This document shows positions 3,673-44,997 of a DNA stretch of 64,000 nucleotides, piece after piece. A program made the position numbers and the translations under genes. Origin of the DNA: an uncultured Alphaproteobacteria bacterium (GTDB taxonomy: Bacteria > Pseudomonadota > Alphaproteobacteria > HIMB59 > GCA-002718135); the NCBI GenBank assembly GCA_902525035.1, contig CABZFN010000003.1:70395-134394 (forward strand). The letters run 5' to 3'. Below the pieces are notes generated by a model. That model searched no databases, was not told the DNA's origin, and saw nothing but the letters and a program-made list of their open reading frames with translations. Each line of letters begins with the position of its first letter. The stretch's first letter is position 1.

Positions 3673-3693
3673 GAATATTTATATAAATATCTA

Positions 3694-3768
3694 TGGTGGG
3701 TGTGACAGGGATTGAACCTGTGACCCCTGCCGTGTCGAGGCAGTGCTCTACCGCTGAGCTACACACCC
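3694..3768 (-). tRNA. tRNA-Val (anticodon GAC), CCA encoded
   Basis: I folded the reverse complement by hand: GGGTGTG TA GCTC AGCGGTA GAGC A CTGCC TCGACAC GGCAG GGGTC ACAGG TTCAATC CCTGT CACACCC ACCA. It gives a perfect cloverleaf of 75 nt with discriminator A73. The anticodon loop is U-C-G-A-C-A-C. Confidence 0.9.
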
Positions 3769-3989
3769 AAGTAATTTTATTTTTAAAATAAACTAATTTG
3801 AAATATAATGACTTTTAAAGCTAAAGCAATAAATGAAAGCTTGTATGATATTTTTAAATTTTACTTAATTTAACCTTTTTTGATCATTAATTAAGTAAAT
3901 AAATTATAAACATATTGATCAATTTTTTATTAAATAATATTTAGAGTTTAGAATTATCCATACGATTGAATATTGACATTAGGAGATAA

Positions 3990-4490
3990 ATGAAGGTAAA
4001 AAAAAATAATTTTACAGAAAATGAAATCTCTAAAGCTCTAAAAATTTATAATTATTTTATTGAAAATTCATTCTCTAATTTTGAAGAAAAAAAATTATCT
4101 AAAATAACATTTAATTTATTATTAAAAAAAATTAAAAAAAATAAGTTACCATTTATTTTAGCAATTGAAGAACATAAAGTTATTGGATTGGCCTTTGTAA
4201 ATAAATTTAGAGAAAAAAGTGGATATAGATTTTCATATGAACATTCAATCTATGTAGATCCAGATTACATTAATAATGGTTATGGTAATAAAATATTAAA
4301 GGAACTTATTAAAATATGTAAAAAAATTACAAAGATTAAAAATTTAATAGCAGTGATTGGTGGAAAAAATAATTTTGCTTCTATAAAAATACATAAAAAT
4401 AATGGATTTCAATATATTGGCACTATAAAAAAAGCTGGTTTTAAAAACAATAAGTGGGTTGATTCGATTTATATGCAAAAAAGATTATGA
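3990..4490 (+). CDS. GNAT family N-acetyltransferase (phosphinothricin/methionine-sulfoximine acetyltransferase-like)
   Basis: 166 aa. Acetyl-CoA binding core GYGNKILKELI, followed by SIKIHKNNGFQYIGTIKKAGFKNNKWVDSIYMQK, which resembles the PAT subfamily C-terminus. Confidence 0.75.
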   Translation: MKVKKNNFTENEISKALKIYNYFIENSFSNFEEKKLSKITFNLLLKKIKKNKLPFILAIEEHKVIGLAFVNKFREKSGYRFSYEHSIYVDPDYINNGYGNKILKELIKICKKITKIKNLIAVIGGKNNFASIKIHKNNGFQYIGTIKKAGFKNNKWVDSIYMQKRL

Positions 4491-8634: not shown

Positions 8635-9862
8635 TCAAATGATTAAGTATTTGATTAAGTTTTAATTCTTTTTGTTCTCCAGTCATTAAATTTTTAATAG
8701 TAAAAAAATCACCATTGAACTCATTTTCTCCAATAATAATTAAATATGATGCTGAAGATGTATTTGCTTTTGTAAATGATTTTTTTAAATTGTATTTATA
8801 ATTCCAGTAATATGAAATTCTATTTTCAAATAAATATTTTTGTAGATAAAGAAAATAATCTGTAAATTTTTCATTTGTTACTGCAATATGAATAGTTGAG
8901 TTTATTTTTTTTTCGGACTCCATTAATAATGCAATTCTTTCAATACCTGCGGCCCATCCAATACCAGGTATATCAGGCCCGCCTAATACTTTTATTAAAC
9001 CATCATATCTTCCACCACCTAGTAATGTATTTTGACTTCCTAAATTATCTGATTTGTATTCAAAAACTGTATTACAATAATAATCAAGACCTCTAACGAG
9101 ATTAGCATTTTCTTCAAAATCAATTTCTAGTATATTTAATGATCTTTTTAGATCTTCGTAGTGCTTTTTAGCTTCATCAATTAAGTATTCATATATTTTT
9201 GGTGCAGAAAGTGAAATTTCAACATCTTCCTCATTTTTTGAATCTAATATTCTTAATGGGTTTGTTTCAATTTTTTTAATGCTCTCTTCTGATAGTTTTT
9301 TTTTATGGGTATTAAAATATTTTGTAAGACTTTTTTTAAAATCAATTAACGTTTTTTTATCTCCTAAAGAATTAATATGAAGTTTTATTTTAGATTTAGG
9401 TAAAAGTTCGTTTAGAATATTATTTGACAGTGAAATTAACTCAACATCAGCAAGAAAATCTTTTGTTCCAAGTATTTCAAAATTAATTTGATTAAATTGT
9501 CTATATCTACCTTTTTGTGGCCTTTCCCTTCTAAACATTGGCCCAATTCCAAAAATTTTTAATGGAAGATCGTTTAAGAGATTATTAGTAATAGCCGCTC
9601 TAATCATAGGCGTTGTGTACTCAGGTCGTAATGTTAAATATTCATTATTTCTGTCTTCAAATGAATACATTTCTTTCAAGACAACATCAGAATGTTCACC
9701 AAGAGGTTTTGCAAATAAATCACTAAATTCAAAAATTGGTGTCTGGATTTCTTTATATTCTTTAAAAGTAGCGTTTTTAGAAACAATATTAGAAATAAAG
9801 TTAAATTTATCTATTTCTTCTCCAAATATATCATGTGTGCCTCTTACCGATCTTAATTTCAT
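8618..9862 (-). CDS. hisS: histidine--tRNA ligase
   Basis: 414 aa. Class II motifs: [48 protein letters not shown]. Confidence 0.9.
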
Positions 9863-32748: not shown

Positions 32749-34332
32749 TTAATTATCTATTAATTTTTTTAGATAATCAATAGTTTCTCTTAAACCAAAT
32801 AATTTAAAAAATGATCCTAGTCTAGGGCCTTGGTCCTGACCAAGCATAACTTGATATACAAGTTTAAAAAAATCTTTTAAGTTTTCAAATTTATGCTTTT
32901 TTCCAACTTCGTATAATAATGTTTGAATATCTTCAGATGAACTATTTTCATTAATATCATTTTCTAATACATTAATAATATCAATAAATACTTCTTTATT
33001 ACTACTATCAATCTCTAAAAATTTCTTTTTAGGCAAAATAAAATCTTCATAGTAATTTAGTGCAAAGTCTATGAGACGGTCAAATTCAGGGTTGTTATCA
33101 GCGTTAATTTGATCATCATATTTATTAATAAAAGACCAAATTACTTTTTTATCTTTAGAATTAGAAACGTTTACTAGGTTAGTTAAAGTATTGAAGTTTA
33201 TTTCTGATTTAAATTTTTTTGGTTTTCCGGAATGAATATGCCAAATTGGATTATCATACTGTTTATTTTTATCTAATTTTGAATAAGAATTATAATGAGC
33301 AAGATAATCATCTACAGTTTTAGGAATTACATCAAAGTGAAGTTTCTTTGCTGATTTTGGTTTTTGGAACATATAGAGTGCAAGACTCTCAGGAGATGCG
33401 TAACGCAGCCACTCATCTACACTAATACCATTTCCAACTGACTTAGAAATTTTTTCACCTTTTTCATCTAAAAACATTTCATAAATTAGATTAGTTGGTG
33501 GTTTTTTATTTAATGCTCTACAAATCTTGGATCCTAAATCAACACTTTCTGTAAGATCTTTACCACACATTTCATAATCAACATCAAACGACATCCATCT
33601 CATTGCCCAATCGACTTTCCACTGTAACTTACATTTTCCATTAATTACTTCTGTTTCAACTAACTTGTTTAAAGATGGATCTTTGTAAATAATTGTTTTT
33701 GAATCCATTTTATATTCTTCAATTTTTACTTGAAGAACCTCACCTGAGTTTTCACTTATTGGAAGAAATGGGCTATAAGTTTCTTTTCTCTCTGCTCTTA
33801 AGGTAGGTAAAATAATATCTAATATTTTTGAATAGTTTTCAAATATACTTAATATTGTTTCATTAAAATCTCCATTTTGATATTTTTCTGTTGAGCTAAC
33901 AAACTCATAGTCGAAATTAAATTCACCTAAAAAACTTCTAAGTTTTGCATTATTATGATGCCCAAAACTTTCAAATTTACCAAATGGATCTGGTATAGAA
34001 GTAAGTGGCTTACCTATAAATTTTTCTAACATTTCTTTATTTGGAACATTTTCAGGAACTTTTCTTAATCCATCCATATCATCAGAAAATGTGATCAGTT
34101 TAGTTGGGCAGTCTATTATAGAGCTAAATGCATTTTTTACCATTGATGTTCTTACAACTTCACCAAAAGTTCCAATATGAGGTAAACCTGAAGGGCCGTA
34201 ACCAGTTTCTAGTAATACATATCCCTTAGATGGAATTTTAAAATTTTGTAAACCACCATTTTTTTTAATGATTTGTAATGCTTCTTTAAAAGGCCAAGCT
34301 TTTAAGGATTGTACTAGTTCTTGATCAATCAT
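32749..34332 (-). CDS. lysK: lysine--tRNA ligase, class I
   Basis: 527 aa. HIGT (HIGH-type) motif in PSGLPHIGTFGE and KISKS (KMSKS-type) in GEKISKSVGNG. The length and layout are those of class I LysRS. Confidence 0.88.
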   Translation of the reverse strand: MIDQELVQSLKAWPFKEALQIIKKNGGLQNFKIPSKGYVLLETGYGPSGLPHIGTFGEVVRTSMVKNAFSSIIDCPTKLITFSDDMDGLRKVPENVPNKEMLEKFIGKPLTSIPDPFGKFESFGHHNNAKLRSFLGEFNFDYEFVSSTEKYQNGDFNETILSIFENYSKILDIILPTLRAERKETYSPFLPISENSGEVLQVKIEEYKMDSKTIIYKDPSLNKLVETEVINGKCKLQWKVDWAMRWMSFDVDYEMCGKDLTESVDLGSKICRALNKKPPTNLIYEMFLDEKGEKISKSVGNGISVDEWLRYASPESLALYMFQKPKSAKKLHFDVIPKTVDDYLAHYNSYSKLDKNKQYDNPIWHIHSGKPKKFKSEINFNTLTNLVNVSNSKDKKVIWSFINKYDDQINADNNPEFDRLIDFALNYYEDFILPKKKFLEIDSSNKEVFIDIINVLENDINENSSSEDIQTLLYEVGKKHKFENLKDFFKLVYQVMLGQDQGPRLGSFFKLFGLRETIDYLKKLIDN

Positions 34333-34786
34333 TTAATTTTGCTCTAATTCTAATTTTTTTACCCAATAACAATTTTAATGAATTTGTGAAATTAAAAATT
34401 TCAGTTCCTAATTTATTAAATAATTCATTTTCTAAATCTAGAATATTATTAATAATATTATTAATTAAATCATTCCCTGCTGCAGTTAGAATTAAACTAT
34501 CAGATCTTTTATCTTGTGGTTGTTGTTTAGATATTAATTTCTTTTCTTCTAGTTTGGAAACACGTAAACTAACAACTGATCTATCAATAGATGCATTTTT
34601 ACATATATCCTGTTGAGTAATATTTATGTTTTGTTGCTGTAATAAATAAATTGTCTCGAGAATAAGATATTCATTTAATGTGATTTGACTCTCTTTTAAT
34701 TTATGTCTTACTTTAGATTGCCATAAGTTTGATGTTTGCCAAATTAATAATGCTAATCTATTCTCATTTAGAGAAGTATCTGCCAT
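34325..34786 (-). CDS. MarR family transcriptional regulator
   Basis: 153 aa. Winged-helix core ITLNEYLILETIY ... ITQQDICKNASIDRSVVSLRVSKLEEKKLISK. 8-nt overlap with lysK. Confidence 0.8.
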   Translation of the reverse strand: MADTSLNENRLALLIWQTSNLWQSKVRHKLKESQITLNEYLILETIYLLQQQNINITQQDICKNASIDRSVVSLRVSKLEEKKLISKQQPQDKRSDSLILTAAGNDLINNIINNILDLENELFNKLGTEIFNFTNSLKLLLGKKIRIRAKLND

Positions 34787-34792
34787 TGTTTT

Positions 34793-34815
34793 TATACAAA
34801 CTGTTTGTATACAAA
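34793..34815. promoter_or_regulatory. candidate operator: overlapping palindromes TATACAAAC-T-GTTTGTATA and TTTGTATACAAA
   Basis: A perfect 9-bp inverted repeat with a 1-nt spacer lies at 34793-34811. It overlaps a perfect 12-bp palindrome at 34804-34815. The element begins 7 nt upstream of the MarR start codon, in the 48-nt gap after the ferredoxin gene. Confidence 0.35.
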
Positions 34816-34834
34816 TTAATAATTTTTGTCAATA

Positions 34835-35146
34835 CTATTCTGGTGCAATTTCTATCACTAAACCATCAAGCTCTTCAGAAAGATCAATTTGACAAGATAA
34901 TCTGGAATTATTTTTAACATCAAAAGCTTGATCAAGCATAGATTCTTCATCATCATCCATATTTTTCAGCTTATTTGTCCATTTTTCATCAATATAAACA
35001 TGACAGGTAGCACAAGCACAACATCCTCCACACGAAGCTTCAATATCGAAGCCATTATCTCTAAGCGTTTCCATTAATGTAAAATTACAATCATATTCAA
35101 TTTCAGACTTTTTACCTGATCTATCTGTGATTATTAACTTTGGCAT
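34835..35146 (-). CDS. [2Fe-2S] ferredoxin, adrenodoxin/putidaredoxin (vertebrate) type
   Basis: 103 aa. Cys spacing C-x5-C-x2-C-x36-C, counted by hand in SCGGCCACATCH...LSCQI. Confidence 0.85.
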   Translation of the reverse strand: MPKLIITDRSGKKSEIEYDCNFTLMETLRDNGFDIEASCGGCCACATCHVYIDEKWTNKLKNMDDDEESMLDQAFDVKNNSRLSCQIDLSEELDGLVIEIAPE

Positions 35147-36156
35147 TAAACGCCTAGTTTTTTCTGAAGTTCTTTGGAAGATGTTGTGTATCTAAAAATG
35201 TTTTTCTTATCAGGAAAGCAATACTTGAATACTTCTTGAGCCATTAAGGCAGACTCGTGAAATCCTGATAGAATAAGCTTAAGTTTTCCTGGATACCAAT
35301 TTATGTCACCAATCGCAAAGATTGATGGTGAAGAAGTTTCAAATTTTTCAGTGTCCACCTTAATTAAGTTCTCGTGTAAGTTTAAACCCCATTCAGCAAT
35401 TGGACCTAGTTCCATTTTTAAGCCAAAAAATGGCAAAAGGTAATCTACTTCAATTTTTGATCTTTCATTATCGTTTTCGTATTCAAGCATTATTTTGCTA
35501 TCTTGAATCTTTGAAATCTTTTTTATTTGGCCTTTTAAAAATTTAATTTTTCCTTTTGTTTCTAATTCTTGCATTTTTGAAACAGAATCCGGTGCTGCCC
35601 TAAACTCTTTTCTTCTATGTATTAGAGTTACATTGGAATCCTTAGATAATTCATTTGTCCAATCCAAAGCAGAATCCCCTCCTCCCGCAATTAAGAGTTT
35701 TTTATCCTTAAATATTATTTTGTCTCGAATTGCGTAAAAAACATTTTTGTTTTCGAAATTCTCAATATTCTCAATTGGAGGTTTTCGAGGTACAAAGCTT
35801 CCTGCTCCTGCGGCTATAACAATACATTTTGCTTCAACTTTTATGCCTATATTGGTCTCTACGATCCAACCATATTCTGTTTTAGCAATTTTCTCAACTT
35901 GTTGGTTAAGATGAAATTTAGGTTTAAACGGGTTTATCTGCTTAATTAACTCGTCAGTTAATTGTTGTCCTGTTACAACTGGTCTTGATGGAATATCATA
36001 AATTGGTTTTTCTGGGTACAATTCAGCGCACTGACCTCCAACCTTATCTAAATTGTCAACTAAATGACAATTTATGTTTAAGAGACCTAATTCAAATACA
36101 GCAAATAATCCTACCGGACCTGCACCTATAATTACTACATCAGTTTTTTCAGTCAT
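35146..36156 (-). CDS. ferredoxin--NADP(+) reductase, thioredoxin-reductase-like type
   Basis: 336 aa. DVVIIGAGPVGLFA (FAD), LIAGGGDSALDW (NADPH), FAIGDI. There is no CxxC redox pair, as in TrxR-like FNRs. TAATG 1-nt overlap with the ferredoxin gene. Confidence 0.85.
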   Translation of the reverse strand: MTEKTDVVIIGAGPVGLFAVFELGLLNINCHLVDNLDKVGGQCAELYPEKPIYDIPSRPVVTGQQLTDELIKQINPFKPKFHLNQQVEKIAKTEYGWIVETNIGIKVEAKCIVIAAGAGSFVPRKPPIENIENFENKNVFYAIRDKIIFKDKKLLIAGGGDSALDWTNELSKDSNVTLIHRRKEFRAAPDSVSKMQELETKGKIKFLKGQIKKISKIQDSKIMLEYENDNERSKIEVDYLLPFFGLKMELGPIAEWGLNLHENLIKVDTEKFETSSPSIFAIGDINWYPGKLKLILSGFHESALMAQEVFKYCFPDKKNIFRYTTSSKELQKKLGV

Positions 36157-36209
36157 ATGTGAAAAATAACAACTTTTTTTATTATTTCTAGGGATTATAT
36201 ATATTCTGT

Positions 36210-37265
36210 ATGAATTACGCTAATACCTCAAAATATTATAATCCAGCGATTTATATATGGCTATTAACAATAACCGCAATGGTTTTGTTAATTATAGTAA
36301 TTGGAGGTCTAACAAGATTAACCGACTCTGGACTTTCTATGACCGACTGGCGTCCAATTTTAGGTATAGTTCCACCAATGAGTTTAGAAAGTTGGTTGGT
36401 TGTATTTGAAATGTATAAACAAACACCAGAATACAAAATAGTTAACAAAAATATGACGTTAAATGAGTTTAAATATATTTTTTGGTGGGAGTGGTTTCAT
36501 AGAATATTTGCAAGAACCATTGGAGTTGTCTTTTTAATACCTTTAGTTTACTTCAGTTTTAAAAAACAAATTCAATTTTCACTCTATATAAGGCTTGGTA
36601 CTGTCTTTTTGTTTGGTTTGTTTCAAGCAGTTATTGGATGGTGGATGGTAAAGAGTGGTTTGACTGAAAATCCTTATGTAAGCCCTTATAGACTTACTTT
36701 TCATCTTTTAAATGCTCTTATAATTTTTTCTATATTATTATGGATAGCAATGGATTACAGGTATTCTTCAAATATAAGTTTTTTATCTAATCCAAAAACA
36801 ATTGAATTTTATATTTTAATTGCTGTAATCTTAATATTTATTACTATTGCAACAGGTGGATTTATGGCAGGAACCAATTCTGGACAATCTTTTAATACTT
36901 TTCCACTAATGAATGGAAAAATTATACCTGATGACTATGTGATTGATGATTTAGGTATTTATAATATTTTTGAAAATACAGTTGCAATAAATTTTAACCA
37001 CCGCTGGTTATCAATATTTGTTTTTTTTTATATCCTATTTGTATGTTTTAGATTTATTAAATTTGATAATAAAAATGTTTCTAGTTATCTAGTTTACTTG
37101 GTTATATTTTTTCTCACTTTACAAGTTATTTTAGGAATTATCACACTTTTAAGCAATGTTTATTTACCAGTCGCAAGTTTACATCAGACTAATTCAATTT
37201 TGTTATTATCAACTTTATTAATTAGTTATCATCAAATTAAAATTAGAAAGGTTAAGAATGTCTAA
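36210..37265 (+). CDS. ctaA: heme A synthase (COX15/CtaA family)
   Basis: 351 aa, 8 TM. GGLTRLTDSGLSMTDW, EFKYIFWWEWFHR, HR/HQ His ligands in both halves. Confidence 0.88.
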   Translation: MNYANTSKYYNPAIYIWLLTITAMVLLIIVIGGLTRLTDSGLSMTDWRPILGIVPPMSLESWLVVFEMYKQTPEYKIVNKNMTLNEFKYIFWWEWFHRIFARTIGVVFLIPLVYFSFKKQIQFSLYIRLGTVFLFGLFQAVIGWWMVKSGLTENPYVSPYRLTFHLLNALIIFSILLWIAMDYRYSSNISFLSNPKTIEFYILIAVILIFITIATGGFMAGTNSGQSFNTFPLMNGKIIPDDYVIDDLGIYNIFENTVAINFNHRWLSIFVFFYILFVCFRFIKFDNKNVSSYLVYLVIFFLTLQVILGIITLLSNVYLPVASLHQTNSILLLSTLLISYHQIKIRKVKNV

Positions 37266-37983
37266 CAAAAATATATTTGTCTTTGGAGGAACAGGTTCTA
37301 TTGGAAAATCATTATCAAAAAAACTTAAGAGTAATAACTATGATCCAGTAATTATTTCTAGAAATGAGACAGAATTAAAACAATTATCAGAGGAAATTGG
37401 TTGCGAATATAAAGTTTGTGATGTTTTAGATTTTGATAAAGTTAGAAGTATTTCTGAAGAATACAAAGATCGATTATGCGGTATTGCTTTTTGTGTTGGT
37501 TCTATAAATTTAAAACCTCTCAAAATGACTAAAGATGAAGATTTTATTGATTCTTTTAAGATAAATACACTTAGTGCAATAAATGCAATTAAGTTTAATC
37601 AAGAAACTTTAGCTAAAAATACCGGTAGTATTCTACTTTATTCAACTATAGCTGTTAAACAGGGTTTTACTAATCACACAATAGTCTCTACTGCAAAAGG
37701 TGCTATTGAAGGGCTTACTTTAAGCTTAGCTGCAGAATTTGCTCCAAAAATTAAAGTTAATTGTATTGCGCCAAGTTTAACTGACGCAAAAATGACACAA
37801 AAGTTGATTAGTAATGAAACTATTAAGAAAGCAATTGAAAATATGCATCCTCTACCTAAAATTGGATCTGGTGATGATTTCTCTGATATTGGAAGTTTTC
37901 TATTAAGTGATAAAAATAGTTGGATTACTGGACAAATATTTCATATAGATGGGGGAAGATCATCATTAAGAATTAAATCGTGA
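37258..37983 (+). CDS. SDR family protein lacking the canonical YxxxK tyrosine
   Basis: 241 aa. FVFGGTGSIGKSL Rossmann motif. At the expected catalytic position it reads NHTIVSTAK, with V in place of Y. 8-nt overlap with ctaA. Confidence 0.75.
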   Translation: MSNKNIFVFGGTGSIGKSLSKKLKSNNYDPVIISRNETELKQLSEEIGCEYKVCDVLDFDKVRSISEEYKDRLCGIAFCVGSINLKPLKMTKDEDFIDSFKINTLSAINAIKFNQETLAKNTGSILLYSTIAVKQGFTNHTIVSTAKGAIEGLTLSLAAEFAPKIKVNCIAPSLTDAKMTQKLISNETIKKAIENMHPLPKIGSGDDFSDIGSFLLSDKNSWITGQIFHIDGGRSSLRIKS

Positions 37984-38663
37984 AATATATCTTTATAATT
38001 TGTTTATCAGTTTTTTCTTTTAGTGTTTTTTGTCAACCATTTCCTATACCAGAAGATAATGAAGTAAGTTACGATGTTATTAGAAAAAAGAAAAATATTG
38101 GAAGCTTAATATCAAAATTTATAGAAAATGAAGACAGTATAGTTGTGCATTCAGTCTTAAAGATAAATGTTAAAGTTTTATTTATTCCAGCATACAAATT
38201 TTTTCAAGAAACTAAAGAAACATGGACAAATGGAGAATTTGTATCAATAGATGGATTTACAGATTTTGAAGATGATAGGGAATACAAAATAATTGGAAAT
38301 GATAAAGATAATTTTTTCATTGCTAGTGGTATGGATGGGCAAATAAAATTAGACAAAAATATAGTACCATTAAACTATTGGAATCCTGAAATGTTAAAAG
38401 AAAAAGAGGTATTTGACACTCAAAAGGGTATTGTGAGAACAATAGAAGTAGAGCAACTTGAAGATGAAAAAATTAAAATCAATGACATTGAAATATTAGC
38501 TAATAAGTATCTTTTCAATGCATCAAAAAACCCAAAAGATAAAGGACCATTTCCAGAATATACACTTTGGTATTTTGAAAAAGAACTCATGAAAATGGAA
38601 TTCAAAAACCCTAATGATAAAAAAAATATTATAACAATAATTCGTAATGATTGGAGTCAATAG
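37980..38663 (+). CDS. exported protein of unknown function
   Basis: 227 aa. GTG start in a GTGA overlap. Signal peptide MKYIFIICLSVFSFSVFC. The mature part looks beta-rich and has no motif I can name. Confidence 0.55.
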   Translation: MKYIFIICLSVFSFSVFCQPFPIPEDNEVSYDVIRKKKNIGSLISKFIENEDSIVVHSVLKINVKVLFIPAYKFFQETKETWTNGEFVSIDGFTDFEDDREYKIIGNDKDNFFIASGMDGQIKLDKNIVPLNYWNPEMLKEKEVFDTQKGIVRTIEVEQLEDEKIKINDIEILANKYLFNASKNPKDKGPFPEYTLWYFEKELMKMEFKNPNDKKNIITIIRNDWSQ

Positions 38664-39422
38664 TTGCAAACTATATGGATTACCGGTGGATCTTCAGGTA
38701 TTGGTTTTGCTACAGCAAAAGAATTTATAGGTAATAATTGGCAAGTTGTAATTTCTTCAAGTAATAAAATAAAACTTGAATCTGCAAAAAAAAAGTTAGA
38801 ACTAAATAATCATAAAAATTTAGTTCATGCTATTGTGTGTGATATTTCTTCTAAAAATAATGTTGATGAAACGATTAATTCTATAGAAAAAAATATTGGT
38901 AAAATTGATATAGCATTATTAAATGCATCAGCTTATAGTCCAAACAAAAATCAAATATTTGATATTGCAAACTACGAATTACTAGTTGATGTAAATATCA
39001 AAGGCACTTTGTATTGTGTTAACAAATTAAAAGATGTTATGAAAAATAGAAATAATACGATAGCTATAATTTCTTCACCATTGGGATATAGAGGTTGGCC
39101 AACAGCAGGGGCATATGGTATTTCTAAGGCAGCACAATTAAGCTTGAGTGAGAGCTTGTATTTTGATTTTAAAAAGTTGAACATTAACGTTAGAGTTATA
39201 TGTCCAGGTTTTATTGATACTGAAGCAACCAAGAAAAATAGCTTCAAAATGCCTTTTTTAAAAAGTGCTGAATATGCAGGAAAAAAAATATTTGATAGAC
39301 TAACTAAAGGTAAAGAATTTGAAATAATTTTTCCCTATTTTATTGTATATTTTTTTAAATTTACAAGGATATTACCTTACAAAATATATTTTTATATTTG
39401 GAAAAAATTAGGGAATTTCTAG
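38664..39422 (+). CDS. classical SDR family oxidoreductase
   Basis: 252 aa. TGGSSGIGFA, NASA (NNAG variant), catalytic S...YGISK. TTG start directly abutting the previous stop. Confidence 0.8.
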   Translation: MQTIWITGGSSGIGFATAKEFIGNNWQVVISSSNKIKLESAKKKLELNNHKNLVHAIVCDISSKNNVDETINSIEKNIGKIDIALLNASAYSPNKNQIFDIANYELLVDVNIKGTLYCVNKLKDVMKNRNNTIAIISSPLGYRGWPTAGAYGISKAAQLSLSESLYFDFKKLNINVRVICPGFIDTEATKKNSFKMPFLKSAEYAGKKIFDRLTKGKEFEIIFPYFIVYFFKFTRILPYKIYFYIWKKLGNF

Positions 39423-40548: not shown

Positions 40549-40749
40549 ATGGATGACATAAACAAACTTATAGAAATTTTAAAAAATTTTGAACAAGAAC
40601 ATAGAGATCTTGATGAAATACTTATTAGACTTCAAGAAAAAAATACTGTAGATTTTTTGCAAATTCAAAGATTAAAAAAAAGAAAATTAATCCTAAAAGA
40701 TAAAATATTAGAAATTCAAAATAAATTAGAGCCTGATAGTATAGCTTAA
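40549..40749 (+). CDS. DUF465 (YdcH-like) small coiled-coil protein
   Basis: 66 aa. LQIQRLKKRKLILKDKI pattern typical of DUF465. Confidence 0.65.
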   Translation: MDDINKLIEILKNFEQEHRDLDEILIRLQEKNTVDFLQIQRLKKRKLILKDKILEIQNKLEPDSIA

Positions 40750-41363
40750 GCTAAAAAACTTTTTAAAAATTTAGGAGTATTATCCTTAATAAAAGATATT
40801 CTTTCCTTAATTTTTGGAATTTTTGATATTTTCTTAAGATTTTTATCGATATTTTCTTCAACGTCCTTCATTTCTTTTGAAAAAAAGACGAATAATGCAT
40901 TAGTATAAACTCCTGATAAAATAAGTCTTTTTGTATAAAAATTAAAATCTGTTGAATTATCTCCAGCTAAATACCACATTGTATTTACTGAATTATATAA
41001 ACTCTTTTTGGATATTTTATTATTTGTGGGCAGCAATAGATGGTTGAAGGTTTTTTTATAAAATTCTTTATCTTCATTTAATATATCAAATCGTAATAAT
41101 AATATTTTTTTTATTCTTTTGTTAATTGGAAAATTAATTAAGTTAATTTTTTTTAATTTAAATTCAAGTTTTTCATTAATATTTTGTAGAGCATATTTTA
41201 ATAAATCTTTATACCCATCTGGAAAAAAAAAGAATAAATCATTTTTTTCTATGTTTTGTTTTTGTAATTTTGAAAATATTTCTGATGACCAACCTTCAAT
41301 TGATACAATTTTTTTTGCTTTTTTTAGAATATCTTCTTTTTTTTTATTTTCTGTTTTGTTCAT
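40746..41363 (-). CDS. COQ9-like / 'rpsU-divergently transcribed' family protein
   Basis: 205 aa. The helical, TetR-like fold pattern and the location near a divergent rpsU match the alphaproteobacterial COQ9 homologue family. The assignment is from memory of that family, not from a motif. Confidence 0.55.
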   Translation of the reverse strand: MNKTENKKKEDILKKAKKIVSIEGWSSEIFSKLQKQNIEKNDLFFFFPDGYKDLLKYALQNINEKLEFKLKKINLINFPINKRIKKILLLRFDILNEDKEFYKKTFNHLLLPTNNKISKKSLYNSVNTMWYLAGDNSTDFNFYTKRLILSGVYTNALFVFFSKEMKDVEENIDKNLKKISKIPKIKERISFIKDNTPKFLKSFLA

Positions 41364-41874
41364 TTTTCCAATATGTAGTTATTTCTTTTTCAAAACCAAA
41401 AGCATTTTTATGTGCTAAGCGTGATGTATACAAAATGCCGTTTAAATGGTCTACTTCATGTTGTACTACCCTTGCATGTAAGCCTTCAACTTCATTTTCG
41501 ATTACTTTACCATCAAGATCAAATCCTGAATATTTAATTTTTTTAAATCTTCTAACTAAACCTTGCATGCCTGGAATTGATAAACAACCTTCCCAATCAT
41601 CCTCAGTTTCTTTTTCCATGGGTGTAAAACTAGGATTTATTAATGGTGTTATCTCAATTTTATCTTTCTCTTCATTATCTGGATTACGAAATACGATTAT
41701 TTTTTTTGAAATATGTACTTGGGGTGCTGCTAAACCTATACCGTTATAGTCAAGCATTGTTTCAGACATATCATAAACTATTTTTTTTAAAGAATCTGAT
41801 GAGAATTCATTTATCTCAGAACATTCTTTAAGCAAGATGGGGTGACCGATTTTTGATATTTTGAGAATAGACAC
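41344..41874 (-). CDS. def: peptide deformylase
   Basis: 176 aa. GIGLAAPQ, EGCLSIPG, HEVDHLNG. Confidence 0.93.
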   Translation of the reverse strand: MSILKISKIGHPILLKECSEINEFSSDSLKKIVYDMSETMLDYNGIGLAAPQVHISKKIIVFRNPDNEEKDKIEITPLINPSFTPMEKETEDDWEGCLSIPGMQGLVRRFKKIKYSGFDLDGKVIENEVEGLHARVVQHEVDHLNGILYTSRLAHKNAFGFEKEITTYWKNEQNRK

Positions 41875-41968
41875 ATGATAGATATAAGTATTTTTTCTAA
41901 TATACCAATAGATTAATTCAATATATCCGTTTGCAAATAATATGAGTTTATGTTACTAGCCGGATCCA

Positions 41969-42166
41969 ATGACACTTTTTGTGAATGTAAAAGATAATAA
42001 CGTAGAACAAGCAATTAGGGCGTTAAAAAAGAAAATGCAGCGAGAAGGTTTGTATAAAGAAATGAAACTACGTAAACACTATGAAAAACCTTGTTTGAAA
42101 CGAGCTAGAGAAAAAGAAGAAAATATTAGAAGAGCAAGGAAATCTGCAAAAAGAAATAACGATTAA
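41969..42166 (+). CDS. rpsU: 30S ribosomal protein S21
   Basis: [37 protein letters not shown]. An in-frame GTG at 41981 is an alternative start. Confidence 0.9.
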
Positions 42167-43557
42167 GCAGAAAGACTTTTTACGATATCCTCACACATTT
42201 TTTTAGCATCTCCAAAAAGCATAGTCGTGTTATCTCTATAAAACAATTCATTATCAACACCGGAATAACCAGTTGCCATTGAACGTTTTACAAATAAAAC
42301 ACTCTGAGATTTTTCTACATCTAAAATAGGCATACCAAAAATAGGAGAGGACTCATCTGTTTTTGCAGCTGGATTTGTTACATCATTCGCCCCAATAACA
42401 AAAGAAACCTCTGTCATAGGGAAATCATGATTAATTTCATCTAGCTCCAGAACTTCTTCATAAGGAACATTCGCTTCAGCTAATAAAACATTCATATGAC
42501 CTGGCATTCTTCCTGCAACTGGGTGTATTGCATATCTTACTTCTATTCCTTCTTTTTTTAATATATCACCCATTTCTCTTAAAGCATGTTGAGCTTGCGC
42601 TACAGCCATTCCATATCCTGGTACAATAATTACAGAGTCTGCATTTTTCATTATATATGCCGCATCCTCTGCATTACCTTGTTTAACAATTTTGTCTGAG
42701 TTATCCTTACTAGCGCTAGTATCTTGCTCGCCACCAAAACCTCCTAGAACAACATTAATAATGGATCTATTCATCCCTTTACTCATTATATAACTCAATA
42801 TTGCACCAGATGCTCCAACAAGAGCACCAGTTATAATTAAGAGATTATTACTTAGGGTAAATCCTATGCCACAAGCTGCCCAACCTGAATAAGAGTTTAA
42901 CATAGAAACGACAACTGGCATGTCAGCTCCACCAATAGGAATTACTACAAGAAATCCTAGTAATATTGAAACAATAACAATTGTCCAAAAGATTGTTGGA
43001 GATTGATTAATTACAAATAATACAATCAAGAAAATAATAAGAAGAAAAATTAGTGCATTTATAAGATGCTGGAACTTAAATACTATTGGCTTTCCTGAAA
43101 TTGTACCTTGTAATTTTCCAAAAGCTAAAACTGAACCAGAGAAAGTAATAGCGCCAATAAATGTTCCAATACTCATTTCAACTAAACTAGCAGTTTTTAT
43201 CGAACCAACTTTTCCAATACTAAAAGCTACGGGATCATAGAATGCAGCAGCAGCAACAAATACAGCAGCTAAACCTACTAAGCTATGAAATGCCGCTACC
43301 AATTGAGGTAATGCTGTCATCTCAATTCTTAGAGCAATAAATGAACCTATAGCACCACCAATAAGTATCGCGGCACCAATTTCATAATAACTAAGAACTG
43401 ATTTGAACATTAGCGTTGTGAACACCGCTATAATCATTCCAATAACACCAAAAATGTTTCCCATTCTTGAAGACTCAGGGTGAGATAAACCTCTTAGAGC
43501 AAAGATAAATAATAACGCAGAAATTAAATATAATATCGCAACCATGTTATAAGACAT
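42163..43557 (-). CDS. pntB: NAD(P) transhydrogenase subunit beta
   Basis: 464 aa. Multi-TM N-terminus. C-terminal dIII domain with [12 protein letters not shown] and IGANDVTNP. Confidence 0.95.
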
Positions 43558-43874
43558 TATTCTTTTTCCTTTGTTTTTTTTGTTTTTTTCTTAAACATTG
43601 AAAGCATTCTATATGTTACTAAGAAACCTCCAAAAATATTAACTGAAGCTAATACAACACCAATTAATCCAAAAATTTTTGAAGTATCAAAACCTTGCGG
43701 ACCGGCTGCCAATATTGCCCCAACAATAATTACACTTGATATTGCATTTGTTACACCCATCAATGGACTATGTAATGCAGGAGTGACTGACCAAACTACA
43801 TAATAACCAATAATACAAGCTAAGAAAAATACTGTTAGTCCAATAACAAAAACATCTGAAGAATGTGCTTCCAT
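43557..43874 (-). CDS. pntAB: NAD(P) transhydrogenase subunit alpha part 2 (membrane)
   Basis: 105 aa, 3-4 [20 protein letters not shown]. Confidence 0.9.
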
Positions 43875-43875
43875 A

Positions 43876-44997
43876 TTATTTAAATTGCTCCAATCTTACA
43901 TCCCCATCATGCGTTAACAAAACAGAATTAATTATTTCATCATCAAAATCAAAATTTATTTTTTTATTTTCTTTATCAATTAATAAACTTAAAAAGTTAG
44001 AAATATTTTTAGCATACAGTGCTGATGCATCTTTAGCTACTCTTCCAGGAACATTGCCATAACCAACGATTTTTACTCCATTATGCAAAACTATTTCATT
44101 CATTTTACTTAAAGGACAATTACCACCAGCTTCCACAGCCAAATCAATTACTACTGAACCTGGTATCATCGAAGAAACCATGTCTTCTGTAATTAAAACT
44201 GGAGCTTTTTTCCCAGGAATAAGAGCTGTACAAATTACTATATCTTGTTTTGAAACTGTTTCAGCTATCAATTGAGCTTGTTTTTTCTTATAATCTTCAC
44301 TCATTTCCTTTGCATAACCACCTGCGGTTTCAGCATTTTGAGCTTCATCATCTTCAACCATTATGAATTTTCCACCAAGACTTTCAACTTGCTCCTTAGT
44401 TGCTGCTCTTACATCGGTGGCAGAAACTACAGCGCCAAGTCTTTTTGCTGTTGCAATAGCTTGTAAACCAGCAACTCCTACACCAAGTATCATAACTTTT
44501 GCTGGATTTACTCTTCCGGCAGCAGTCATCATCATTGGAAAAGCTTTTCCAAATTGCTCCGCTGCATCAATGACACTTCTATACCCAGCTAAGTTAGCTT
44601 GGGATGATAAAACATCCATACTTTGTGCTCTGCTTATTCTAGGAATTAATTCCATACAGCATGATGATATTTTGTTTTTGTTTAAGTTAGAAAATTCAGA
44701 TTTATTTTCATATGGGTTTAAAATTCCAATAAGTAATGAATTACTTTTTAAGTTATTTATGTCATCAGTGCTTGGCATTCTAACACATAAACAAACATCA
44801 GCCTTCAAACATTCTGATCTAGTAACAATTTTTGCTCCAGCTTCCTCATAATTTGAATTTTGATATCCTGAAGTTTCTCCAGCTCCATTTTCAATTATAA
44901 CTTCAAAACCCAATCTAGAAAAAAGCTTAACAGATTCAGGGGAGATTGAGACTCTTGTCTCATTGTTATCATTTTCTTTAATAGCAGATAAGAGCAT
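43876..44997 (-). CDS. pntAA: NAD(P) transhydrogenase subunit alpha part 1 (dI, AlaDH/PNT fold)
   Basis: 373 aa. [26 protein letters not shown]. The split-alpha organisation matches Rhodospirillum-type enzymes. Confidence 0.93.

Follow-up and report, generated by a model that had tools for sequence, protein, structure and literature searches.

A gene for heme A synthase (ctaA) stands back-to-back with genes for a ferredoxin-NADP+ reductase (FNR; fnr) and an adrenodoxin-type [2Fe-2S] ferredoxin (fdx) in a 64,000-nucleotide stretch of an uncultured alphaproteobacterial genome of SAR11 type (contig CABZFN010000003.1; the whole stretch is hereafter the window), and this reductase-ferredoxin pair is a plausible candidate for the electron donor of the bacterial enzyme. 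Linkage of fnr with fdx is found throughout the class, and linkage of both with ctaA in three or four deep lineages. The aa3-type cytochrome c oxidases need heme A, whose synthase uses O2 and reducing equivalents. The donor of these equivalents is known genetically in mitochondria only, where yeast Cox15 requires mitochondrial ferredoxin and ferredoxin reductase, with O2 as oxidant (PMC13213658; PMC7140478). No bacterial donor was found in the reviews searched, one of which, on bacterial oxidase assembly, lists CtaA and CtaB, names no electron donor for CtaA and describes the set of known assembly proteins as incomplete (PMC9145763). The ctaA-fnr-fdx association of bacteria is undiscussed in the literature searched, and its neighbours stand uncommented in a public supplementary table (PMC12808453). 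If the pair feeds CtaA, the three proteins offer a defined system for reconstitution, from one of the ocean's most abundant organisms, and the Cox15-ferredoxin partnership predates mitochondria, with the reductase swapped later. If it does not, the trio is a set of ordinary housekeeping genes in a genome that packs its genes densely.

Three known protein families and a proposed electron-transfer chain

The open reading frames (ORFs), overlap, spacer and ferredoxin motif described in a first-pass annotation of this DNA are all present in the sequence. ctaA (36210-37265, plus strand, 351 amino acids) encodes a type-2 (class D) heme A synthase, a homologue of Cox15. On the minus strand, fnr (35146-36156, 336 amino acids) encodes an FNR of the thioredoxin reductase (TrxR)-like, homodimer type, and fdx (34835-35146, 103 amino acids) a ferredoxin of the adrenodoxin/putidaredoxin type. 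Two features were read directly from the DNA: the fnr stop codon TAA (35148-35146) and the fdx ATG (35146-35144) have base 35146 in common, which gives a minus-strand TAATG overlap at 35144-35148, and a 53-bp spacer (36157-36209, assigned to neither strand) separates the divergent fnr and ctaA. The identities given in the annotation hold as well, with matches to Fer2, to the FNR of structure 5YGQ and to PF02628 over its full length, and each of the three proteins is an ordinary representative of a known family.

The ctaA product matches the Pfam family COX15-CtaA (PF02628) with E=3.5e-103, its residues 16-336 covering profile positions 2-321 of 322. Its single cysteine (Cys279) leaves no loop cysteine pairs, which defines it as type 2; the type-2 (class D) classification follows PMC12808453. 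Four conserved histidines (97, 165, 264 and 325) are predicted at the periplasmic ends of transmembrane segments TM2, TM4, TM6 and TM8, each starting a helix after an extracytoplasmic loop; these segments, eight of which are expected, were judged from the protein sequence only. The score against the NCBIfam model for alphaproteobacterial heme A synthase (NF045570) falls below its cut-off (259.9 vs 550 bits), although the alignment still runs end to end, and we attribute the shortfall to a divergent, AT-biased sequence (27.7% G+C).

For the reductase, which matches Pyr_redox_2 of Pfam (E=1.4e-25), the closest solved structure is 5YGQ, the TrxR-type FNR of R. palustris (RpFNR; 59% identity, 415 bits, E=1e-123). 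Scores of 190-235 bits are reached against 3AB1, 3LZW and 2ZBW, and 79 bits or less against true TrxRs. The protein scores below the cut-off of the TrxR model TIGR01292 (115.6 vs 343) and has no CxxC motif, its only cysteines being at positions 30, 43, 111 and 313. The C-terminal re-face tyrosine is kept, FRYTTSS aligning with FQYTTSS of 5YGQ; in RpFNR, Tyr328 is the aromatic residue stacked on the re-face of FAD (PMC9137726). The 5YGQ match and the missing CxxC thus bear out the earlier assignment to a TrxR-like class distinct from mitochondrial Arh1.

The ferredoxin matches Fer2 of Pfam (E=8e-11), and its cluster ligands, C39-x5-C45-x2-C48-x36-C85, fit the adrenodoxin-type pattern C-x5-C-x2-C-x36/37-C. 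Its 39 solved relatives of the adrenodoxin/putidaredoxin type are headed by R. palustris ferredoxin 3HUI (97 bits), Novosphingobium Arx (3LXF), R. capsulatus FdVI (1E9M, 85 bits) and putidaredoxin, and include the ferredoxin domain of S. pombe Etp1 (2WLB). By bit score it is closer to mitochondrial Yah1 of yeast (74) and to Etp1 (66) than to the ISC ferredoxin of E. coli (52), with human FDX2 at 62. Its score is also under the cut-off of the ISC-ferredoxin equivalog TIGR02007 (64.8 vs 132.1 bits), and no isc or suf genes occur among the annotated neighbours of fdx. An acidic stretch, MDDDEESMLD, presumably stands where adrenodoxin-type ferredoxins have their partner-binding region.

In the chain that we propose, NADPH would reduce the FAD of the homodimeric TrxR-like FNR, which would pass single electrons to the ferredoxin. 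The couple would act as a housekeeping donor with several clients, one of which would probably be the type-2 heme A synthase, and the heme b of CtaA would relay the electrons received from the ferredoxin to activate O2 at the bound heme O. In line with this chain, the redox potentials of RpFNR favour reduction of ferredoxin by NADPH (PMC9137726). Such a chain would mirror Arh1 to Yah1 to Cox15 of mitochondria, and the back-to-back genes would be an old alphaproteobacterial arrangement kept by SAR11.

The likeness to mitochondria lies in the combination of a Cox15-type synthase, an adrenodoxin-type [2Fe-2S] ferredoxin and an NADPH-dependent flavoprotein reductase, and in the linkage of synthase and ferredoxin genes, which are adjacent here and fused in S. 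pombe, where Etp1 is a Cox15-ferredoxin fusion. Unlike Arh1, the reductase belongs to the TrxR-like FNR class and not to the adrenodoxin-reductase class; unlike the Etp1 fusion, the genes of the putative bacterial system are separate and divergently transcribed. A second relative is the R. palustris pair of RPA3954 (FNR, 5YGQ) and RPA3956 (PuxB, 3HUI), whose genes also lie near each other and whose members are the closest solved matches of the two window proteins; there, and in Hyphomicrobiales generally, fdx precedes FNR and ctaA is not nearby. PuxB is reported to support the P450 CYP199A2, though weakly. Class I P450 systems (putidaredoxin reductase, putidaredoxin and P450cam) have the same ferredoxin fold and the same logic, in which NAD(P)H feeds a flavoprotein, a [2Fe-2S] protein and finally a heme enzyme, but they use another class of reductase, and the surveyed neighbourhoods contain no P450 gene.

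Linkage of the three genes across the Alphaproteobacteria

A first protein search with the FNR returned only SAR11 variants of at least 83% identity, with no diversity, and was replaced by a survey whose query was an alignment of the window FNR with that of R. palustris. One genome per species was scanned and 10-kb flanks were taken, which yielded 80 FNR loci, nine of them of SAR11 type (28-29% G+C) and the other 71 from elsewhere. Ten window proteins served as tblastn queries for homologues in these loci, and all ORFs within 6 kb of FNR were clustered.

The fdx gene lies in the flanks of FNR in 59 of the 71 non-SAR11 loci (42 of the 52 where both flanks are evaluable), and always on the FNR strand. 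In Hyphomicrobiales and Parvibaculum, the PuxB-like branch, fdx comes first; in SAR11, Rhodospirillales and Micavibrio-like lineages FNR comes first, often with 2-11 bp between the genes (L001-L009, L023, L024, L028, L040 and L045). Since the linkage has outlasted a change in gene order, we take it as good evidence for a functional couple. The FNR and the ferredoxin are thus very probably a cognate electron-donor couple conserved in Alphaproteobacteria, in which the FNR would reduce its neighbouring ferredoxin in vivo. That the reductase instead has another acceptor, and the ferredoxin another reductant, is highly improbable. The reaction of the R. palustris pair has been reported to be slow, RpFNR showing 'low reactivity' toward the neighbouring RPA3956 in vitro (PMC9137726), and fdx is not beside FNR in 10 of the 52 fully evaluable loci, including Caulobacterales and two Micavibrio loci; yet 59 of 71 loci have the two genes adjacent although their order varies, with junctions tight enough for translational coupling in many lineages.

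The divergent ctaA has a more restricted distribution. All nine SAR11-type loci have it upstream of FNR and on the other strand, at gaps of 51-55 bp, even where CtaA identity is 55-58%. Elsewhere it is found in 15 of 71 loci, or in 14 of 62 if only loci with 2.5 kb or more of sequence upstream are counted; the 15 comprise eleven Micavibrio-like loci, two of Thalassobaculaceae, one of Rhodospirillaceae and one of Inquilinaceae, in which ctaA is 5 kb off. Overall, 24 of the 80 loci have the linkage, from SAR11, Micavibrio-like lineages, Thalassobaculaceae and one Rhodospirillaceae lineage. Estimated gaps outside SAR11 extend from 33 to about 1000 bp; five Micavibrio loci have 33-85 bp, and Thalassobaculaceae and L024 have 238-277 bp. 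The absence of conservation beyond this genome, which the first-pass annotation had named as grounds for refutation, is thus not borne out. In a neighbour-joining tree of FNR, ctaA-bearing loci fall in SAR11, in a Thalassobaculaceae/Rhodospirillaceae group and on several Micavibrio-like branches, and a large Hyphomicrobiales/Parvibaculum clade has none.

No other flanking gene of the window behaves in this way. By tblastn, lysS, marR, the two genes for short-chain dehydrogenases/reductases (SDRs), the DUF6134 gene, pfk and pyrD are not conserved in non-SAR11 loci; the sole SDR matches there (L028 and L039) are weak, at about 25% identity, and are not orthologues. Recurrent neighbours of the pair in the surveyed loci, as classified by Pfam and NCBIfam, further include Usg-like proteins, groES-groEL, a GT4 glycosyltransferase, AIM24, DUF2332 and an unclassified membrane protein. 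P450, Rieske oxygenase, suf/isc (Fe-S assembly) and lipA/lipoate genes do not recur near the pair in these loci, and ctaA is the sole plausible redox client among the recurrent neighbours.

We further note two groups of observations on these loci. Two ferredoxin paralogues accompany one FNR in four of them, one on each side in the Parvibaculum-like L038 and L053, and both downstream of FNR in L057 and L071 (Thalassobaculaceae/Rhodospirillaceae). An Hpt-domain protein (PF01627) accompanies the fdx-FNR pair in 21 loci, mainly of Hyphomicrobiales, where a large coiled-coil protein is also often near; in L021 the Hpt-domain ORF (8957-9388) is directly upstream of fdx on the same strand. The Hpt, Usg, GT4, AIM24 and DUF2332 proteins and the unclassified membrane protein were considered as ferredoxin clients and rejected, as none is one by its Pfam or NCBIfam assignment.

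CtaA as a possible client of the couple, and other explanations

We tentatively read CtaA as a client of the FNR-ferredoxin couple. This reading draws mainly on mitochondrial precedent and on partial synteny, and in our judgement it falls slightly short of being evenly balanced. In favour of ctaA, SAR11 kept it while usg, groESL and every other neighbour were lost, so that one of the couple's two flanks outlasted a very deep divergence. We count this survival as weak to moderate evidence for a functional link, shifting the odds about two-fold.

A number of observations weigh against it, and many are what one would expect if gene order had simply been inherited, with the FNR-ferredoxin couple a general donor for other processes (Fe-S assembly, ferredoxin-dependent enzymes) and ctaA a surviving neighbour that receives no electrons from it. 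Within 10 kb of FNR, ctaA is absent from Hyphomicrobiales, Parvibaculum and Caulobacterales, though these have kept FNR, mostly with fdx, and the pair thus persists without ctaA in most lineages. All ctaA-linked cases have one orientation, and the simplest account is a single ancestral arrangement, kept in early-branching orders and lost in crown orders, with no repeated independent assembly. Past fdx, a Usg-like gene (PF06233, opposite strand) and groES-groEL are each found in 14 non-SAR11 loci (between them L015, L022, L023, L026, L031, L036, L041, L045, L049, L052, L054, L055, L057, L059, L068 and L071), and groES and/or groEL are kept without ctaA in L015, L023, L045 and L049. The ancestral block was accordingly ctaA, divergent from FNR-(membrane protein)-fdx, then usg on the opposite strand, then groESL, and both the constant orientation and the distribution fit descent from it. 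Since usg and groESL, which have no redox logic, stand beside the pair as often as ctaA does outside SAR11, block inheritance explains much of the conservation of ctaA. Passive retention would be favoured further if, as is probable, a breakpoint in a very short spacer with two promoters is harmful.

Inheritance of gene order alone accounts less well for SAR11, where no match to usg or groES-groEL was found in the 64-kb window and where ctaA has stayed at 51-55 bp, down to 55% CtaA identity, despite the loss of all other block and flanking genes. It also leaves aside the direct functional reason for a link that mitochondria provide, and no alternative client is encoded nearby. On balance we consider this explanation a serious possibility, if a somewhat doubtful one.

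On the side of ctaA, the association is uncommon. According to a 2026 study of heme A synthase synteny, which does not discuss ferredoxins, type-2 genes lie mostly by rplM/rpsI, argC, agmatinase, GNAT and chain-length-determinant genes (PMC12808453). Among the 962 type-2 rows listed in its Supplementary Table 6, PF07992 is rare, appearing in at least 7, as against at least 241 with rpsI; K04755 (2Fe-2S ferredoxin) appears in at least 3 and PF00111 in at least 2. The legible PF07992 rows are three SAR11-type genomes with neighbours as in the window, Micavibrio aeruginosavorus ARL-13 and one metagenome-assembled genome with sulfite-reduction genes. An M32 carboxypeptidase gene follows ctaA in Paracoccus and Falsirhodobacter, and the usual site of type-2 ctaA is thus elsewhere, by rplM/rpsI/argC or the carboxypeptidase gene. 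No reductase gene is near ctaA in Paracoccus, and neither Paracoccus, Falsirhodobacter nor the rows listed in the table yielded a further case in which ctaA and a reductase gene are independently associated.

What is known of the ferredoxin family also belongs on this side. FdVI of R. capsulatus (fdxE), a member of the same family, is essential, in that its gene could not be deleted (PMC10936413), an observation that again favours inherited gene order over a dedicated link with ctaA. Its proposed role in Fe-S cluster biogenesis points to clients other than CtaA. R. capsulatus is not known to have an aa3 oxidase, its oxidases being only of the cbb3 and quinol types, although a literature search did not confirm this; if it is so, the family must have an essential task other than heme A synthesis. 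The low reactivity of the R. palustris pair, given above, counts here too. Finally, with the heme-ligand histidines predicted toward the periplasmic side, the hemes of CtaA would be far from a cytoplasmic ferredoxin; the same distance problem exists for matrix-located Yah1 and Cox15.

The spacing of the genes adds nothing within this genome. The first-pass annotation had argued from the 53-bp spacer to a shared promoter region, and we compared this spacing with a greedy set of 65 non-overlapping ORFs that covers about 98% of the window. Spacers of its divergent pairs (n=13) range from -37 to 317 bp; their median is 56 bp, three pairs have exactly 53 bp, and the median gap at co-directional junctions (n=37) is 0 bp. 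The 53-bp spacer and the one-base overlap are therefore default spacing, do not single the trio out and are uninformative, so that only other genomes, by comparison, provide a signal above chance. Of the earlier interpretation, then, the identities and the reductase class stand and the spacer argument falls; with the adjacency conserved beyond this genome, the interpretation is partly supported, and the support for the link is weak to moderate.

The spacer sequence bears on a further explanation, in which ctaA and fnr-fdx have a compact control region in common, for example for an oxygen or redox response, and serve separate pathways. The spacer, which may hold coordinated promoters, is near-invariant in L001-L007 and is kept in the divergent SAR11-type loci L008 and L009, with the core TAGAAATAATAAAAAAAGTTGTTATTT, which in the latter two reads TAGAAATA(A/G)TAA(A/T)AAAAGTTG(T/A)TATTT. 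Inside the window spacer (36157-36209) is an AAATAA-N12-TTATTT inverted repeat, although such repeats arise easily in an AT-rich genome. A conserved TTGACA...TATAAC element abuts the ctaA start codon in Micavibrio spacers, but no motif common to SAR11 and Micavibrio spacers was found. A candidate regulator of the divergent spacer is the MarR-family gene at 34325-34786 (minus strand), which has the orientation of fdx, begins 48 bp past it and shares 8 bp with the start of class I lysS, but which is conserved in SAR11-type loci only. A promoter and terminator scan of 34200-37400 was uninformative, with 14 promoter-like sites, fewer than the 18.5 expected from shuffled sequence, and Rfam and ARAGORN scans of the window gave nothing near the trio, their only hit being a tRNA-Val at 3694-3768. 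In P. ubique, minimal Fur, Irr and IscR regulons have been described, with the ctaA/fnr/fdx locus unmentioned (PMC1698941). Taken together, these points make co-regulation without direct partnership improbable.

The reading of CtaA as a client can be carried further back. The ctaA/fnr-fdx arrangement might be a remnant of the alphaproteobacterial forerunner of the mitochondrial Cox15-ferredoxin partnership. The ferredoxin would then have been the dedicated donor of CtaA already before endosymbiosis, and the TrxR-like FNR would have been the first reductase, whose place Arh1/adrenodoxin reductase later took in eukaryotes. We regard this extension as rather unlikely; if true, it would supply the electron donor still missing for type-2 CtaA of bacteria.

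Neighbouring genes in Micavibrio, Falsirhodobacter and the window

In Micavibrio-like loci, a polytopic membrane protein of about 270 amino acids, with no Pfam or NCBIfam match, is encoded between FNR and fdx (L033 at 3690-4487, L022, L026, L036, L041, L052, L054, L055, L059 and L068). Its ORF in L033 overlaps fdx by 4 bp, and similar ORFs are present in L051 (2209-3066) and L067 (5643-6476). In all ten loci with this protein ctaA is divergent to FNR, and we speculate that the membrane protein might belong to the unit as an additional part, perhaps an adaptor. Micavibrio (L022, L026 and others) is placed under Bdellovibrionota in the NCBI taxonomy, although alphaproteobacterial sequences are those with which its FNR, ferredoxin and CtaA group.

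A link of ctaA with Fpr-type reductases, indicated by PF00970 in at least 7 rows of the table of PMC12808453, was considered and rejected, as the reductase inspected, that of Falsirhodobacter, is a member of a sulfite-reductase cluster. On Falsirhodobacter algicola plasmid NZ_CP047290.1 (L082, 1433-6232) the order is cobA, DUF2849, sulfite reductase, cysH and DUF934, with the Fpr-type fnr last and ctaA a few genes off. The row of the metagenome-assembled genome in that table combines PF07992 with the same DUF934, DUF2849 and sirohaem genes. These observations suggest that either class of FNR serves assimilatory sulfite reduction in some alphaproteobacteria.

Downstream in the window, an SDR gene begins within the last 8 bp of ctaA, in a plus-strand region at 37258-39422, and ctaA, this SDR gene, a DUF6134 gene and a second SDR gene form a tight co-directional array that is found in SAR11-type loci only. 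Within 7 kb, at 40549-44997, are genes for a DUF465 protein, a COQ9-domain protein (40746-41363, minus strand), peptide deformylase and the NAD(P) transhydrogenase PntB (pntB, 42163-43557, minus strand), with further ORFs at 43557-44997 directly downstream of pntB. An NADPH-producing enzyme and a ubiquinone-biosynthesis accessory protein are thus encoded near the NADPH-dependent reductase.

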